Origin: Thermoproteota archaeon
GTDB lineage: Archaea > Thermoproteota > Thermoprotei > Thermofilales > B9-G17
Direction of reading: 5' to 3'
NCBI GenBank assembly: GCA_029258885.1
Contig: JAPDJW010000001.1
Span: 192,001 to 256,000, forward strand
DNA: 64,000 nt
Position numbers and translations under genes: made by a program. The stretch's first letter is position 1. Each line of letters starts with the position of its first letter. Of this stretch, positions 1,461-9,666 are shown one piece after another. The notes under the pieces are model-generated. The model ran no database searches, was not told the origin of the DNA, and saw only the letters and a program-made list of their open reading frames with translations.

Positions 1461-2444
1461 CTACAGGGGTTTGGCGTAAATGCCTAATTTAGAGTTTATA
1501 TAATCTGCGAAAGCTTTTGTAAAACCGTATACTGTATACACCTCTTCAGCTCCACTCTTTTCAACATACTCTAGCAGTTGACTGAAATCGACGTGGCTTG
1601 ATAGGGGATAAGCATTAGACTTATTCCATCTAATGCTCCACCCAGTACATACGATAGCTGGCTCCAGCTTTGCGTTAAGAGATAAATTCAACGGAATCAG
1701 ATGAATGCCTCTAGGCTTTCCAGGGATATATTTACTAGTACTGATGTAGCTACCCAGAGGCGGACCATATTTCTCATGTATTAAATTGTACAGGTATACT
1801 GCTGGATGAACTACAACGGGCATACCTATCCTAGAGACAGAAAGAAGGAAAGTTAATTCTTGAAGAGTGCCGAGGCTCCTCCCACCCACGTAAACCACGT
1901 CATACATATCCATTAAACCGACAATATTTTCCAGGATCTCACAGTATAATTTCCTTCTATCAGGAAAGATATAGCTCGGTAAACCATACGTGGATTCTAT
2001 AATTAAGACATCGCCTTTAAGAATTCTAGCTTTCTCCAACACCAATCTTTTGCTTAAATTAACATCGCCAGTATATACTATTGAATCCTTAAAGTTAAGC
2101 CTAAATTGGAGGGAGCCTATACAGTGACCTGCATTATATGCCTCCAAGTAGATTCCATTTACCTCACCGCAAAATCCATCCTCTACATCAACAACTTCTC
2201 TAAGCTTAACGTCATGTTTCTTTTCAATAATCTCTCGAGTAGCCCTACTCATTACCTTGGGAACCTTACGTATAGCTCTCAACGCCCTAATACTGTAGTG
2301 ATCACTATGAGCATGTGATAAAAGAACAAGATCAGGCTTAACGTTTGGAATAGATTTAGGATCAGCTAAAATGCATCTATCAGCGATTCTAATAAGTATT
2401 CCACCGTTGTATTCGACGTTAACCTTTTTACGCTCCAACATCAT
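1461..2444 (-). CDS. MBL-fold metallo-hydrolase, beta-CASP-like (SNM1/RNA-processing exonuclease-like)
   Basis: SHAHSDH, AGHCIGS, YTGD, IESTYG and C-terminal LSSHVDF motifs. Confidence 0.85.
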   Translation of the reverse strand: MMLERKKVNVEYNGGILIRIADRCILADPKSIPNVKPDLVLLSHAHSDHYSIRALRAIRKVPKVMSRATREIIEKKHDVKLREVVDVEDGFCGEVNGIYLEAYNAGHCIGSLQFRLNFKDSIVYTGDVNLSKRLVLEKARILKGDVLIIESTYGLPSYIFPDRRKLYCEILENIVGLMDMYDVVYVGGRSLGTLQELTFLLSVSRIGMPVVVHPAVYLYNLIHEKYGPPLGSYISTSKYIPGKPRGIHLIPLNLSLNAKLEPAIVCTGWSIRWNKSNAYPLSSHVDFSQLLEYVEKSGAEEVYTVYGFTKAFADYINSKLGIYAKPL

Positions 2445-2463
2445 TTCACTCTAGGATGATATA

Positions 2464-2856
2464 GTGGAGGAAATCGACGCCTACGTCAAGCTACATATAT
2501 CTCACATAGACGTTAATAAAGTTTTAAAGAATGGAAGCCAAGCGAAGCTAGTTCTAGGTAATGTTGCAATTAGGAAAGTAAGGTTATATGGTAGAGTACT
2601 GGAAATACGTAGATTTAGAAAGTTTTCTGATGTATTAATTGACGATGGGTCAGGGAACATAACGTGTCGAATATGGGAAGGAACGAGGATGCCCGAGCTT
2701 AAAGAAGGAGATCTAGTCGATGTATTTGGTCAGATAAGGCTCTATAATGAAAATCTATACGTAAAAACAGATATCATAAGGAAGATTAATGAGGAGTTCG
2801 TGAAACTGAGAGAAGCTGAAATCAAGCTAACAGAACTAATTCTTTTCAAACGCTAG
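2464..2856 (+). CDS. OB-fold nucleic-acid-binding protein (RPA32/Stn1 OB-like)
   Basis: KVRLYGRV...IDDGSGNITCRIW...GDLVDVFGQIRLY is a typical OB-fold signature. Confidence 0.8.
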   Translation: MEEIDAYVKLHISHIDVNKVLKNGSQAKLVLGNVAIRKVRLYGRVLEIRRFRKFSDVLIDDGSGNITCRIWEGTRMPELKEGDLVDVFGQIRLYNENLYVKTDIIRKINEEFVKLREAEIKLTELILFKR

Positions 2857-2895
2857 CTATTTAACGGCAAGTCACTATATTACTGTCAGATAGAT

Positions 2896-3201
2896 ATGCC
2901 TAAAAAATCCCGTAAGGAGCAGCCAATAGATCTAACAAGTTTTTTCGTAGAGGAAAAGGAGGAGGTTCCAAAGCCTTCTAAGACTGCCGAGGAAAGGGAT
3001 GTAAGTGAAGCTGCTAGGAGAGTGGAGAGCTATATTAAGACAAATAGAACAGTTTTAAAGTCCACGCTCTATAAGTGGGCCGTAAAGAACAATATCTCGC
3101 CGCAGGAGCTTTATTTATCACTAAAACAACTTATTAAAGAAGGTAAAATAAAGAAAATATTTGACCATGCTAGAGAGGAGATAGCATATATGTATGTTTA
3201 A
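2896..3201 (+). CDS. Small protein with N-terminal PIP-like motif and C-terminal winged helix
   Basis: N-terminal (Q)PIDLTSFF; C-terminal KSTLYKWA..NNISPQELYLSLKQLIKEGKIKKI reads as a wHTH. Confidence 0.65.
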   Translation: MPKKSRKEQPIDLTSFFVEEKEEVPKPSKTAEERDVSEAARRVESYIKTNRTVLKSTLYKWAVKNNISPQELYLSLKQLIKEGKIKKIFDHAREEIAYMYV

Positions 3202-3214
3202 CTGAGGTGGTGTC

Positions 3215-3475
3215 ATGACGTATAGAGATTACCTTAAGGTTGAGGATATAGACGACTTTTTAAAGATAGCGGAGAAATGTGATGTAATCCTTAGAATTGA
3301 TCCATTCCTCATAGTGAACTTCTATGGAACGATGTTCTATATAGACCTAGGTGAAATAGAGGAGGACATGGTTAAAAGGGTAATTTCGGGACTAAAGGCG
3401 AAAATAGTAAATATAAGGGAGACTAAATCATATAAATCGGTAAGCGAATTCTACTTGAAGGAAACACAAGCTTAA
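3215..3475 (+). CDS. Hypothetical protein (86 aa)
   Basis: GAGGTGGTG RBS before the ATG; co-directional within the operon; normal composition. Confidence 0.75.
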   Translation: MTYRDYLKVEDIDDFLKIAEKCDVILRIDPFLIVNFYGTMFYIDLGEIEEDMVKRVISGLKAKIVNIRETKSYKSVSEFYLKETQA

Positions 3476-3507
3476 TATAATCTACTGAACAAAAGGCTAT
3501 AGTAGCG

Positions 3508-4239
3508 GTGGAAGATGTGCATATAAGCTATCAAAAATATGGCTATTACATAGGATACGAGGACTATGTCCTCATCAGCTGGTTTTCGGAGCTAATCAAA
3601 AGCGTCCTTCCTTCTGTAAGTGAGGGCGAGATAAACATAATGTCTAGCGTAGCGCTTACAGACTTTAAGAACTGGGTTAAATATAAGAGGCTTATTTTAG
3701 GAGAAAAAGGAGCCGATGAAAAAGTAGATGCTCTTATCTCATGGCTAATAGATAATCAGCCCAATGAATTGAAGAAAATAATGAGAGAGTGGCTTGAAAG
3801 CTGGCTACTTAAATGGCGACAGAGAGTTAAGATAATATTTGATGAGAACGAGGATACAAAGCAAGCAAAGAAGATTTTCGCTAAAACCAATAACGTATGG
3901 CGTAAAATACCCTATAAGGATGAGTTAAAGGAAATAATCATTGGATCGCTAATTAGTGTGGGTGAGATTTGTTTCACAGAGGTTATATCAGAAAGCATAC
4001 TGAGGGGGGAATTGAATAAATATATGAATTACGTTAAGGATGAGGATAAGCTTTTAGAAATCTTAAGCAAAAATTCCATCCTGATACTTAAGGATGCCAT
4101 GCGTAATGTAAAGAGGATTACCCGCATAAAGGGACCGCTAATTGTAGTACGCGTAGATACTAGTGTCCTTAAAACGGAGGAGGATGAGAGTAGAGGACAA
4201 AATAAAGGCAGTAGATGGCGATGGAATATATCCTTCTAG
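3508..4239 (+). CDS. Hypothetical alpha-helical protein (243 aa)
   Basis: Long ORF with a GTG start, stopping 10 nt before the probable rnhB ATG. No family recognised. Confidence 0.75.
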   Translation: MEDVHISYQKYGYYIGYEDYVLISWFSELIKSVLPSVSEGEINIMSSVALTDFKNWVKYKRLILGEKGADEKVDALISWLIDNQPNELKKIMREWLESWLLKWRQRVKIIFDENEDTKQAKKIFAKTNNVWRKIPYKDELKEIIIGSLISVGEICFTEVISESILRGELNKYMNYVKDEDKLLEILSKNSILILKDAMRNVKRITRIKGPLIVVRVDTSVLKTEEDESRGQNKGSRWRWNISF

Positions 4240-4249
4240 CTGTGGAAAG

Positions 4250-4915
4250 ATGTTTATAGCTGGCATAGATGAAGCTGGACGAGGACCAGTAATAGGGCCG
4301 ATGGTTGTAGCGTTAGTACTAGTCGATGAAAATGGAGAATTTTTACTCAAAAGAATTGGTGTAAAGGATTCTAAAACTCTTTCTAAAATGCAAAGACTTA
4401 GATTATCGAAAAGCATTCAAGTAATATGTAGGCAAGTTATAGTAGAAGTAGTTCAGCCGTCAGAGATAGATTCAGCCGTATACGGTAGAACCGCAAAAAA
4501 CCTTAATGATCTTGAGGCGAGAATTGCTGCACGTTTAATAGACAAGATAACGTTTACCCCGTGCAACGTATACGTAGATTCTCCGGACGTAAACACCATT
4601 AGGTATCGTAATACAATAATGAAATATCTATCCAGGGACGACATTGAAATAATAGTTGAGAATGATGCCGATAAGACGTATCCCGTTGTCTCGGCGGCAT
4701 CAATTATAGCGAAGGTTAAAAGAGATAGCATAATTGAGGAACTGAAAAAAGTATATGGCGATTTTGGCTCAGGTTATCCTTCCGACCCTAAAACGAGAGC
4801 TTTTCTACGTAATATAATAAAAGGCAGACGCATACCACCTATCGTTAGACGATCATGGAAAACGTTCAGGAATATTGTGAAGCAAAAACCAAGCGGATAC
4901 AATGTAGTTATATAA
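4250..4915 (+). CDS. rnhB: Ribonuclease HII
   Basis: IAGIDEAGRGPV.GPMV, GVKDSK, ADKTYPVVSAASIIAKV.RD, GSGYPSDP. The start is placed at ATG 4250 (MFIAG) rather than the track start at 4163. Confidence 0.95.
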   Translation: MFIAGIDEAGRGPVIGPMVVALVLVDENGEFLLKRIGVKDSKTLSKMQRLRLSKSIQVICRQVIVEVVQPSEIDSAVYGRTAKNLNDLEARIAARLIDKITFTPCNVYVDSPDVNTIRYRNTIMKYLSRDDIEIIVENDADKTYPVVSAASIIAKVKRDSIIEELKKVYGDFGSGYPSDPKTRAFLRNIIKGRRIPPIVRRSWKTFRNIVKQKPSGYNVVI

Positions 4916-5067
4916 AATCTTCCTTTTCTCTTCGACTAAATATAACGTAGCCTTAGCTTTTACATATAGAAAGGTTTGTTTTCAGATTTTTCTATTAAAA
5001 GTTTATTTCTCTGAGATAAGTTTTATATTCCAATTAAATGTTTTTCAATAACGAGTAGGGTGTAATT

Positions 5068-7188: not shown

Positions 7189-9666
7189 TTACTTCGTTAA
7201 TTTTTCGATGCAGTTTAGGCAAACATATTTTTTCTTGAATAAAAAGCGTTTTTCAACGCAACAGTCTCTACAAGTGGTTTTTCCACATTCAGAGCACTTG
7301 TATGCATGCATCTTACATACGGTTTCTCCGCAGATATAGCAGCTAATGGTATGATTATCGCATACAGGGGAGAAGCATTCGCTACATAGGGGAATTCTTC
7401 TGCTTCCTGTAACAACGGGTATGCCGCATACAATGCACCTTCCAGCGTATATATATCCTCGCTTCTTCTCGATGAAAACGGTACTCTTTAGGCCGTGTCT
7501 AGACACTTTCATTAAGGAGCCTTTGCCCTTTTCGAATTTTATATTGTTTATCTTAAATATTGGTCTAATAAAAATGTAGTTGAGTGGTCTCTTTAGATAT
7601 GGTTCGTACTTCCTCCTTATGTTATCGGCTAGGATAGGGTATCTACTTACCATTTCCTCGGCTTCCAATATCTGTGCTAATTTCCTCTTTAATGTTCTTC
7701 TATGTTTCTTTAGTTCGAGGAGATATTTTCTGCTGTATCCTTTATGCTCGATGAGACTTAGCCTTCGCCTTCTACCTCTTTTCCCTATTTTTTCCTCTAT
7801 TCTCTCTATTTCCTTCTCCAGTTTAGCTAGTTCACTGATTATCATGTTCTTCCGGGGGATTACGTTGTATTTATAATGGTTAATTCTACTCTCCAGTCTC
7901 CTCAGCTCCTTCTCCATTTTCAGTAAAATTTTCTCCTTAACTTTCTCGGCCAGCTCCTTCTCGTTATCCGGTGAAACAGAGGCTATTTTGACAACATCCG
8001 AGTAAACGATTTTCTCTAATACTATATCTTCAAGGAGCTTTCTAATAACGGATCGTGTTAGTTCCTTCTTCTTAGTGACCTTAAATGGCTTTTCATCTAT
8101 GAAGATAACCATGTAGTCAGGGACTAAGGGATGAATAACTACTCTAATCTTCCGCTTCAATTTCTTCTCGATCTTTCCGATCGGTGGAATATCGGCTACT
8201 ACTATTTCCTCAACGTTAGCAATCCACCTAGATACCGTGGATGATTTAACGCTTAAAACATCATACCTTCCTAAAGGTATGTATGTTTTCTGTTTAACCT
8301 CCGTATCCCTAGGAGGCTTATATTCAGGCAGCTTTATTTCACGTTTATATTTGGCACATACAAGCTTTATCTCATCGGCTGTTAAGGCGCCTCTGTGATA
8401 TGTCAGCAACCACCTAGGCCTAATCAATACAGTTTTTCCTTCATCGTAATTATGGTACAGGAATTCTAGGGTCTTTAGTTTGGCTAATATTCCGCCTGAA
8501 TTATCCAGCTCCAATCCGCTTCTCACTTTAGCTATATCCTGTTTAGTAGCTAATCGCCCTATGAATCTATTTGCAGCGTTTGATAGAACCTTGTAATCCA
8601 CATCGACCGGATTTTGTGTTGCGAGTATTATTCCAAGGCCGAAGGCTCTGGCCTGCTTTATCAGCATTAGTAGGGCGCGTTTTGAGGGAGGAGCTTGTAC
8701 AGGAGGTACGTATCCGACAACCTCATCGAAGACTAGCAGGTATTTTAGTCTATTAGTACCTTCTTTCTTTAACATCCAGCTATATAGACAGTTAAGTAAT
8801 ATTCCAACGAAGAAGTGTTTTTCGCTTTCGGTAGGTATCCATCTCAAGTCTATAACTGATATTGTTTTAGGCTCAAATAATCTATCCATATCTAGTTTTT
8901 CGCCGAAAAACCACGCCTTAAAACTTGGATAAGAAATTAGTAGGTTTAAGTCCCTAGCCAGTTTCCTACGTTCCTTCGAGGAAATGAACTCATCGATATT
9001 TAAGCTTCCCATCTTACTAATACTAGGATTCCTAACCTCCTCTATCAATTGTTCAATGCTTATACCTTCTCCTCTAGCCCATTTCTCATTTATTATGCTT
9101 GATAATAGTGCCAGTTCTCGCCTCCTCTTTTCTGAGTAGCCAATTAGTCTCAGAATGCTTAAAGCTGTAGATTCGAGCAGTTCATATGCGGATGATGGGT
9201 CTTCCTTAAGTAAGGTATCGTAGTTATATGGAGGATCAAATGACGGAGATATAGATAAGGGTATGCCTAAATTGCTTCTCGGAGTATATATCTTCACCCT
9301 AATATTTTCGGAAAATTCCTTTACATTGATTAGATCTAAGTTATATTGCCTAAGCTTTTTAGAATACTCCCTTAAAAGCTCGCGATCATATACTTCAGGA
9401 TCTAGACCACGTGCCCTAGCCTCTGCATCACACCAAGGTCTAAAACTTTCATAGCATGCCAAAGCCAGGGTTGTCATATCGCCCTTAGGATCAAGAACAA
9501 CTACAGGTATTCCAGCTAATGCAGCGTCTTCAATTATTGCTTTCGAGAGAACGGTTTTTCCTGATCCAGTAGCGCCAAGAATAACCGCATGTTTAATGAA
9601 TTTATCTCTATCGACCGAAAAATCATGTCCTTCGATTGTTTTACCTAGGATAAACTCTGAAGACAT
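7189..9666 (-). CDS. HerA/FtsK/VirB4-superfamily ATPase (DUF87/DUF853-like) with a coiled coil and Cys-rich C-terminal zinc-binding domain
   Basis: KHAVILGATGSGKT, VVVLDPKGD, LVFDEV, KQARAFGLGIILATQNPVD; C-terminal array of CxxC/CxxH motifs. Confidence 0.85.
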   Translation of the reverse strand: MSSEFILGKTIEGHDFSVDRDKFIKHAVILGATGSGKTVLSKAIIEDAALAGIPVVVLDPKGDMTTLALACYESFRPWCDAEARARGLDPEVYDRELLREYSKKLRQYNLDLINVKEFSENIRVKIYTPRSNLGIPLSISPSFDPPYNYDTLLKEDPSSAYELLESTALSILRLIGYSEKRRRELALLSSIINEKWARGEGISIEQLIEEVRNPSISKMGSLNIDEFISSKERRKLARDLNLLISYPSFKAWFFGEKLDMDRLFEPKTISVIDLRWIPTESEKHFFVGILLNCLYSWMLKKEGTNRLKYLLVFDEVVGYVPPVQAPPSKRALLMLIKQARAFGLGIILATQNPVDVDYKVLSNAANRFIGRLATKQDIAKVRSGLELDNSGGILAKLKTLEFLYHNYDEGKTVLIRPRWLLTYHRGALTADEIKLVCAKYKREIKLPEYKPPRDTEVKQKTYIPLGRYDVLSVKSSTVSRWIANVEEIVVADIPPIGKIEKKLKRKIRVVIHPLVPDYMVIFIDEKPFKVTKKKELTRSVIRKLLEDIVLEKIVYSDVVKIASVSPDNEKELAEKVKEKILLKMEKELRRLESRINHYKYNVIPRKNMIISELAKLEKEIERIEEKIGKRGRRRRLSLIEHKGYSRKYLLELKKHRRTLKRKLAQILEAEEMVSRYPILADNIRRKYEPYLKRPLNYIFIRPIFKINNIKFEKGKGSLMKVSRHGLKSTVFIEKKRGYIYAGRCIVCGIPVVTGSRRIPLCSECFSPVCDNHTISCYICGETVCKMHAYKCSECGKTTCRDCCVEKRFLFKKKYVCLNCIEKLTK

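Follow-up and report, generated by a model that had tools for sequence, protein, structure and literature searches.

Five closely spaced genes on one strand, the last of which codes for an RNase HII, raise the question of whether they encode the subunits of a single nucleic acid-processing assembly or a set of neighbours brought together by rearrangement. The genes, referred to here as OB, wH, p86, p243 and rnhB, were analysed as part of a window comprising the whole stretch of 64,000 nucleotides under study. All of them lie on the + strand, with intergenic gaps of 39, 13, 32 and approximately 10 nt in gene order, and they diverge from a gene coding for a 327-residue MBL/beta-CASP-type nuclease (1461..2444, - strand), from which OB is separated by a 19-nt spacer. 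In this respect the ORF list of the window agrees, coordinates included, with the sequence-only reading that preceded the present analysis. The nuclease gives Pfam matches to Lactamase_B_6, Lactamase_B_3 and Lactamase_B_2, as well as a weak one to RMMBL, and a TIGR04122-like match in NCBIfam (2e-28, under the cut-off). Several families of the Thermofilum order have an MBL homologue close to OB and wH, mostly in a series of genes for SAH hydrolase, MTA phosphorylase, MBL and phosphoribosyltransferase. Metatranscriptomic coverage of the locus consists of only two short contigs, both within rnhB (4407-4768). The locus is best explained as three units, each conserved separately, that came to adjoin by chance: OB together with wH, p243 (with the patchily distributed p86) and RNase HII.

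The first gene, OB (2464..2856, + strand), encodes a 130-residue protein with an OB fold and a predicted C-terminal helix region. It matches PF01336 in Pfam (5.5e-10), with a sub-threshold match to RMI2 (7.7e-5), and a single-sequence search pointed to Stn1 (0.0085). Comparison of the family profile with the PDB was considerably more informative, yielding matches to Rfa2 (6i52_B, E value of 3.7e-12), U. maydis RPA32 (4gnx_B, 2.4e-8), STN1 (4joi, 3.8e-7), P. abyssi RPA32 (5e-5) and human RPA32 (6.5e-4), and a weak one to P. abyssi RPA14 (0.018). Trp71 is invariant in the family and is aligned to the tryptophan of 'VRKW' in Rfa2. On the strength of these profile matches, OB is assigned to the RPA32/Stn1-type family, with a DBD-D-type OB fold, and the likeness to RPA32 and Stn1 that had been proposed from the sequence is supported. 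Homologues of OB are present in 33 of the 41 genomes of the Thermofilum order, the only order in which they were detected in a phylum-wide sample.

The second gene, wH (2896..3201, + strand), encodes a 101-residue protein that belongs to no Pfam or NCBIfam family. Its C-terminal half is a winged helix, as indicated by the generic winged-helix proteins found among its Atlas structure neighbours, and the best match of its profile in the PDB is the winged helix of eS10 (0.005). The same profile comparison revealed no sequence similarity to the winged helices of RPA32 or Stn1, RPA_C was not matched in Pfam, and an Atlas feature search with wH and p243 gave no feature above chance. Homologues of similar length number 21 among the matches retrieved, and all of the source names given for them are 'hypothetical protein'. 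wH was found in all 41 genomes of the Thermofilum order and in 27 of the 201 genomes of the phylum sample, which belong to this order and to two sister families (f9 and f10); each of the 22 genomes sampled from the sister families possesses it. The gene located just upstream of wH in the sister families is an unrelated one coding for 224-236 residues, the product of which gave negative results when aligned with the p243 and OB profiles using hhalign and had no match in the PDB. A profile search of the sampled genomes of these families detected no OB homologue, and since wH is nevertheless present in them, it is not dependent on an OB partner.

The N-terminal half of wH is variable except for a single strongly conserved stretch, the PIP-like motif P-I-D-L-T-S-F-F (residues 10-17; 2923..2946, + strand), which is terminally placed after KKSRKEQ and leads into a variable low-complexity linker. 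The peptide (Q)PIDLTSFF, with which wH had been described as starting, is indeed present at residues 9-17 of 101, the glutamine directly following KKSRKE, and is conserved across the class. Phe16 is invariant in 23 wH sequences, with x-x-D-[LI]-T-x-F-[FL] as their motif consensus; nine sister-family homologues retain the h-x-x-F-[FLI] core, for example as TLFDFI, LLAFL and ITSFF, and an N-terminal basic patch followed by this core is found in all of the wH homologues aligned. The canonical PIP box, Q-x-x-[ILM]-x-x-[FYW]-[FYW], is exemplified in the same genome by FEN1, which ends in QASLETWF. The wH motif departs from it at position 1, which is proline here and glycine, serine or glutamate in relatives; the h-x-x-a-a core is present (Leu13, Phe16 and Phe17) and the glutamine lies one residue out of register. 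By these residues, the motif would at best be a Q-less, non-canonical PIP box. Q-less PIP boxes that resemble it are those of RNASEH2B ('KSIDTFF') and Lig1 ('RSIMSFF'), and a disordered linker preceded by a terminal basic patch with h-x-x-F-F is a usual feature of clamp clients, not of wHTH regulators. The wH peptide is predicted to be a likely docking site for PCNA, the gene of which lies at G000 C3:83605-84369 in this genome.

The conserved unit of the locus is the two-gene pair formed by OB and the following wH. The two genes are adjacent and co-directional in approximately 21 of the 33 OB-bearing genomes of the order, in many genera and with gaps of about 35-180 nt, and they lie within about 1 kb of each other in two more. 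In about nine genomes they are found on separate contigs or kilobases apart, and the complete genome G017 has wH in the opposite orientation to OB, with one gene in between. The pair is flanked in at least three ways, by PRTase-MBL-MTAP-SAHH or a HerA-like ATPase on the upstream side and by variable genes downstream, and inheritance of gene order may account for some of the conservation of the neighbourhood. OB, which stops at 2856, and wH are separate ORFs both here and in all of the relatives examined, and a search for longer wH homologues, which is weak evidence in this regard, found no fused OB-wH form. The earlier suggestion of an RPA32/Stn1 layout split over two genes is borne out by the type of OB fold, the domain order and the conserved adjacency; the winged helix has no detectable sequence similarity to those of RPA32C or Stn1.

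We favour, with a probability of roughly 0.55, an interpretation in which OB and wH constitute a split RPA2/Stn1-like adaptor that binds single-stranded DNA (ssDNA) and is probably tethered to PCNA. Together, the two polypeptides would reproduce the OB-then-winged-helix layout of RPA32, Stn1 and archaeal Rpa2. OB would be the ssDNA-binding subunit, as suggested by retention of the aromatic position aligned with the DNA-stacking tryptophan of Rfa2. wH would be the adaptor, docking on PCNA through its basic patch and [ILV]-x-x-F-[FLI] peptide and contacting a partner or DNA by means of its winged helix. If OB and wH contact each other as supposed, the pair would bring ssDNA binding of the RPA2/Stn1 kind to sites of replication or repair on which a clamp is loaded, working beside the two canonical SSB genes of the genome. 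RNase HII is taken here as the ordinary housekeeping enzyme, which arrived downstream in this lineage only.

The systems closest to such a split adaptor are RPA32 (Rfa2), Stn1 and the Rpa2-like proteins, which the pair resembles in the significant profile similarity of the OB domain, in the order of OB, linker and winged helix along the DNA and in the conserved position of the DNA-contacting tryptophan. It differs from them in that OB and the winged helix are split into two genes instead of belonging to the same polypeptide, and from RPA32 and Stn1 in the N-terminal PIP-like peptide of wH, which both lack, and in the partner subunits. Searches of the genome of origin with PF01336 and PF21473 retrieved only two SSB-like proteins, ORFs of the size of tRNA synthetases and a membrane-anchored multi-OB protein, with no RPA1/RPA3 or CTC1/Ten1-type partner among them. 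The multi-OB protein (449 residues; G000 C7) was considered as a candidate RPA1 and rejected on account of its N-terminal membrane anchor and of the TctA-type transporter that it adjoins. A further difference is the occurrence of the pair in a crenarchaeal order: the documented Rpa2-like proteins combining OB and winged-helix domains are from Euryarchaeota (PMC8329085), and RPA is listed as missing from Crenarchaeota, which possess SSB or ThermoDBP instead (PMC3914693).

A tentative alternative places the emphasis on wH alone, which may be an unrecognised class-wide PCNA adaptor of Thermofilum and the sister families with a winged helix that recruits the product of the adjoining upstream gene. 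Clamp docking would be the role of the PIP-like N-terminus, and the protein recruited in the Thermofilum order would be the RPA32/Stn1-type OB. DNA ligase I, UNG2 and MSH6, which are clients with an N-terminal PIP, display a similar succession of basic patch and hydrophobic/aromatic peptide, low-complexity linker and globular domain. In p66/Pol32 of Pol delta, a winged helix and a PIP are likewise combined, and the protein binds an OB-containing B-subunit; however, the winged helix of p66 is N-terminal and its PIP C-terminal, the reverse of the arrangement in wH. Neither these PCNA clients nor p66 have any sequence relationship to wH, and no polymerase link was seen.

It is also conceivable, if doubtful, that OB and wH have no functional relationship and are neighbours through inherited gene order. 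wH would then be a small regulator binding to DNA, or a chromatin protein, with a motif that binds a non-PCNA target, and OB a stand-alone nucleic-acid binder. The presence of wH without a detectable OB in the two sister families would fit such an arrangement, as would the inversion and intervening gene in G017, the nine or so genomes in which the two genes are apart and the undetectable similarity of the winged-helix domain to RPA32C. On the other hand, the pair outlasts rearrangements on both of its flanks in many genera, and the basic patch and h-x-x-F-F peptide are those expected of a clamp client and not of a wHTH regulator. The order of OB followed by wH is, moreover, that of RPA32, Stn1 and archaeal Rpa2 (PMC8329085).

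The two genes that follow the pair each display a phyletic pattern and linkage unlike those of OB and wH, and are best explained as independent genes, separate from the OB-wH unit. p86 (3215..3475, + strand), which is preceded by the Shine-Dalgarno-like sequence GAGGTGGTG, encodes a small acidic protein and occurs patchily, in 6 of the 41 genomes of the order. Its model is a small alpha/beta structure with eL38 as its best matches, and not an OB fold. The protein is unlikely to be a true ribosomal eL38, being acidic and not basic, patchy and not universal in the lineage and devoid of any PF01781 match; comparison with the eL38-like ORF of G051 yielded a score of just 8.7 bits, and the p86 gene is not beside the P1 gene. 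p243 (3508..4239, + strand; GTG 3517 may be an alternative start) belongs to an unannotated family that is widespread in Thermoproteota, including many lineages without a detected OB homologue, and a protein homologue search returned four matches, none of them named. The p243 model is all-helical and has two domains, of which the N-terminal one resembles RNase III in its modelled fold alone. Taken by itself, p243 has its nearest known system in the RNase III domain (Dicer, bacterial RNase III, Mini-III and mL44). Foldseek comparison of the p86 and p243 models with the PDB gave nothing at E<=1e-3, and RNASEH2B and RNASEH2C chains are absent from the structure matches listed for the two models, which does not exclude such a fold. 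As modelled, an alpha/beta eL38-like protein and a two-domain helical one look unlike RPA14/Ten1 or RNASEH2B/C, with which a comparison of the 86- and 243-residue ORFs had been suggested. In Thermofilaceae p243 is linked to a BFN nuclease and the Xer recombinase, and in most of the Thermofilum order it is part of a p243-BFN-Xer operon far from OB-wH.

A full RPA/CST-like heterotrimer, with OB as the RPA32/Stn1-like subunit, p86 in the role of RPA14/Ten1 and p243 in that of the large subunit, is very improbable in the light of these distributions. The four genes adjoin here and in G001, a genome of the same family, wH and p243 do so in two further genomes and p86 and p243 in one, and the OB profile has its weak match to P. 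abyssi RPA14; nevertheless, p86 is much rarer in the order than OB, and p243 occurs in many lineages in which OB is not detected and mostly at a distance from OB-wH.

The last gene, rnhB (4250..4915, + strand), is present in a single copy in the genome and encodes an archaeal type 2 RNase H, RNase HII, as identified by TIGR00729 (229 bits, 6e-68; cut-off 123.3) and PF01351 (1.7e-47). The sequence 'GIDEAGRGPV', containing the DEAGRG motif of RNase HII, is found just after ATG 4250. A start at GTG 4163 would produce a 77-nt overlap with p243, and given that homologues start at the equivalent of ATG 4250 ('MFIAGIDEAGRG'), the gene most likely spans 4250-4915 and encodes 221 residues. The protein ends in KQKPSGYNVVI and has no C-terminal PIP box, in agreement with what had been reported of it. 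As the RNase HII proteins of related genomes are likewise PIP-less, stopping just past PPIVR+SWKT in 18 out of 18 cases, the lack of the box is a clade-level feature and not one specific to the locus, and it is the rule for RNase HII in the Thermofilum order. Among the 38 other related genomes with an RNase HII match, none has rnhB near OB, wH or p243; the gene is on a different contig or at a distance of over 300 kb, also when 20 loci were searched by tblastn, and in G001 OB, wH, p86 and p243 are on contig 27 and rnhB on contig 55. It adjoins the other four genes in this genome only.

In eukaryotes, RNASEH2B bears the PIP box for the whole RNase H2 complex. wH is comparable to it in being small and non-catalytic, in having a Q-less h-x-x-F-F of PIP type and in being encoded near a PIP-less type 2 RNase H, but its peptide is N-terminal whereas that of RNASEH2B is C-terminal, its fold is a winged helix and not a triple barrel, and its linkage to rnhB is limited to this one genome. 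The sequence-only reading, which took OB, wH, p86 and p243 for possible accessory subunits of an RNase H2-like holoenzyme with wH as its PCNA tether, on the basis of the close-packed co-directional genes, the PIP-less RNase HII beside a PIP-like peptide and the analogy with RNASEH2B, is close to refuted by the very synteny check that it proposed, since linkage to rnhB is not conserved even within the family, and TATA-like AT-rich boxes 5' of p243 and rnhB would permit their separate transcription. The idea of an archaeal RNase H2 holoenzyme can be dropped at this locus.

The pairing across an order of an RPA32/Stn1-type OB with a winged-helix protein whose N-terminus resembles a clamp-docking peptide would add a component to the archaeal replication inventory. 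The PIP-wH family, which is unannotated and found throughout the sampled genomes of three families, is a candidate new PCNA client, and OB-wH would be a simple two-protein system for the recruitment of RPA2/Stn1-type adaptors to forks. If wH is indeed a class-wide PCNA adaptor, a crenarchaeal lineage regarded in textbooks as 'RPA-less' would possess an RPA2/Stn1-like ssDNA module tethered to the sliding clamp, which could be kin to the eukaryotic adaptors that couple RPA/CST to polymerases.

The presence of five co-directional genes on the + strand, divergent from an MBL-fold nuclease gene (1461-2444, - strand), was confirmed by ORF listing. These genes encode a 130-residue OB-fold protein (OB; 2464-2856; PF01336, 5.5e-10, with RMI2 sub-threshold), a 101-residue winged-helix protein with an N-terminus resembling a PCNA-interacting peptide (PIP) (wH; 2896-3201), two proteins of 86 and 243 residues (p86, 3215-3475; p243, 3508-4239) and RNase HII (ORF 4163-4915; TIGR00729, 229 bits, cut-off 123.3). 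In Pfam and NCBIfam, wH, p86 and p243 matched no family above the curated cut-offs, with only sub-threshold matches at E values of about 0.05. The overlap of the RNase HII ORF with p243 arises solely from an in-frame GTG further upstream; since homologues begin at the equivalent of the ATG at 4250, 'MFIAGIDEAGRG', the RNase HII gene (rnhB) most likely spans 4250-4915. The successive spacers in the row are 39, 13, 32 and 10 nt long, and GAGGTGGTG precedes p86. TATA-like AT-rich boxes are found in the window sequence ~20-30 nt 5' of wH, p243 and rnhB, and therefore the row may constitute either one operon or several units. Thirteen public runs, taken from hydrothermal-vent, marine and sediment metagenomes of many studies, contain DNA near-identical to 2400-5000 (share of sampled words of at least 0.5), and two short metatranscriptome contigs cover 4407-4768, within rnhB.

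The sequence-only reading suggested that the five genes might form an RNase H2- or RPA/CST-like module. Among 41 genomes of the order, including that of the window, matches were found to wH in 41, RNase HII in 39, p243 in 37, OB in 33 and p86 in six. For each of the 38 other genomes that gave an RNase HII match, a comparison of coordinates placed rnhB apart from OB, wH and p243: on another contig or, where the genome is complete, at a distance of hundreds of kilobases. No RNase HII was found by tblastn in 20 loci spanning ±6 kb around p243. In a relative of the same family, MTAP and MBL genes divergent from OB-wH-p86-p243 lie on contig 27 and rnhB lies on contig 55. The linkage of rnhB is therefore not conserved, and an RNase H2-like module is not supported. 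All 18 RNase HII sequences compared within the order stop shortly after PPIVR+SWKT and contain no PIP, so that a PIP-less enzyme, judging from these C-termini, is not peculiar to this locus.

Neither p86 nor p243 appears to resemble the OB-fold RPA14/Ten1 or the RNASEH2B/C subunits. The model of p86, an acidic protein, is a small α/β domain (pLDDT 88.8); no PF01781 signal was detected in it, and the P1 gene adjoins not p86 but an eL38-like ORF of a sister-family genome. That of p243, a confident one (pLDDT 85.7), comprises two helical domains, the N-terminal one apparently with an RNase III-like fold devoid of the catalytic signature. The p243 family is unannotated, accounts for 194 clusters in a library of 1.84 billion representatives and occurs in 45 of 201 genomes sampled evenly across the phylum, including lineages with no detectable wH or OB. 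In Thermofilaceae, p243 opens a tight operon in which genes for a BFN_dom nuclease (PF02577) and a Xer-type tyrosine recombinase come directly after it, the ORFs abutting or overlapping (L022:5962-7964; equivalents at loci L017, L020-L025, L027-L030 and L032), a linkage far commoner than that with wH.

The OB and wH genes, on the other hand, form a conserved pair, of which RNase HII, p243 and p86 are independent; the proposal of a split RPA32/Stn1 has support for two of the five genes. They adjoin co-directionally, with gaps of ~35-180 nt, in about 21 genomes of the order sample over many genera, and no more than about 1 kb separates them in a further two. About nine genomes, many with fragmented assemblies, have the two genes on separate contigs or at a distance of kilobases. 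One complete genome has wH in the opposite orientation, with a gene lying between it and OB. The pair is kept while its flanks differ: downstream genes vary between genomes, and on the upstream side there is a phosphoribosyltransferase-MBL-MTA phosphorylase-SAH hydrolase run in some and a HerA-like ATPase in others. The latter, a 325-residue HerA/DUF87-type protein, divergently adjoins the pair in a Thermofilum-like genus (L033:6867-7844 and equivalents). An 825-residue HerA-like ATPase with a zinc-finger tail is encoded 2.3 kb downstream of the cluster (7189-9666, - strand), and the two ATPases group together by BLAST. A putative association of HerA-like ATPases with OB-wH is recurrent.

As a single sequence, OB matched Stn1 and Rfa2 weakly. 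A profile of 18 family members searched against the PDB retrieved yeast-type Rfa2 (6i52_B; 3.7e-12), Ustilago RPA32 (2.4e-8), human STN1 (3.8e-7), Pyrococcus abyssi RPA32 (5e-5) and human RPA32 (6.5e-4), with the generic OB proteins SOSS-B1 and YhaM far behind. The invariant Trp71 aligns with the tryptophan of Rfa2 'VRKW', which occupies the DNA-stacking position of DBD-D. On the basis of these matches and this alignment, OB is assigned to the RPA32/Stn1 type. In the 201-genome sample (E<=1e-5) the family was confined to the window's own order, the remaining matches being two-OB or roughly 500-residue proteins of differing architecture.

The C-terminal 60 residues of wH form a winged helix, as indicated by structure neighbours in the Atlas, with no significant sequence similarity to those of RPA32C or Stn1 in Pfam or in profile searches against the PDB. 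The N-terminal half is variable apart from the motif x-x-D-[LI]-T-x-F-[FL] and the basic patch that precedes it; Phe16 of this motif is invariant (23/23 sequences). A terminal, basic-flanked h-x-x-aromatic-aromatic peptide followed by a disordered linker is a hallmark of PCNA clients, and 'KSIDTFF' of RNASEH2B and 'RSIMSFF' of Lig1 are comparable to the wH motif. Because it has no Gln at position 1, the motif would be a non-canonical candidate PIP; its role as such is plausible and the peptide is evolutionarily constrained. A canonical PIP, QASLETWF, ends the FEN1 of the window's own genome. A second FEN1 paralogue ends in a degenerate KQLTLSF (C3:121174-122226 and C3:105930-106958, 15 kb between them), and PCNA_N has a single match in this genome (C3:83605-84369).

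Outside the order, wH was found in every one of 22 genomes sampled from two sister families belonging to the same class, with the h-x-x-F-[FLI] core retained (for example TLFDFI, LLAFL, ITSFF and LLDFL). The OB family was not detected in these families, and the gene 5' of wH encodes an unrelated protein of 224-236 residues, suggesting for wH a general adaptor role and no strict dependence on OB. In one of them (f9) this co-directional gene is conserved and always precedes wH (L058:3320-3994, L060:4330-5040 and equivalents). Its product, with motifs including QRSxxFPPI and GDITRFLERLG and no similarity to Pfam, PDB, OB or p243 entries, is a candidate alternative partner for the adaptor.

The window's genome encodes two canonical crenarchaeal SSB-like proteins, both closest to Sulfolobus SSB, of 103 (2e-21; C1:495772-496083) and 161 residues (4e-12; C1:422123-422608), the shorter lacking a C-terminal tail. 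Neither a ThermoDBP-RP match nor an RPA1-like protein was found in this genome. Its sole multi-OB protein (449 residues, at least two OB folds; C7:34925-36274, L072:1925-3274), whose gene is directly followed by that of a TctA-type transporter, was rejected as an RPA1 candidate owing to its N-terminal membrane anchor and that neighbour. Published surveys give RPA as missing from Crenarchaeota (PMC3914693), and Rpa2-like OB+wH proteins have been described in euryarchaeal lineages only (PMC8329085).

OB-wH is best read as a split RPA2/Stn1-like pair, possibly tethered to the clamp, in a lineage from which RPA is reported missing. The OB subunit would bind single-stranded DNA, while the N-terminal peptide of wH would bridge it, or other partners, to PCNA, bringing the module to repair intermediates or to primer-template junctions beside canonical SSB. 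All wH homologues bearing a source name are listed as 'hypothetical protein', and no precomputed Pfam domain is attached to any of them; the PIP-wH proteins constitute an unannotated, clade-wide family.
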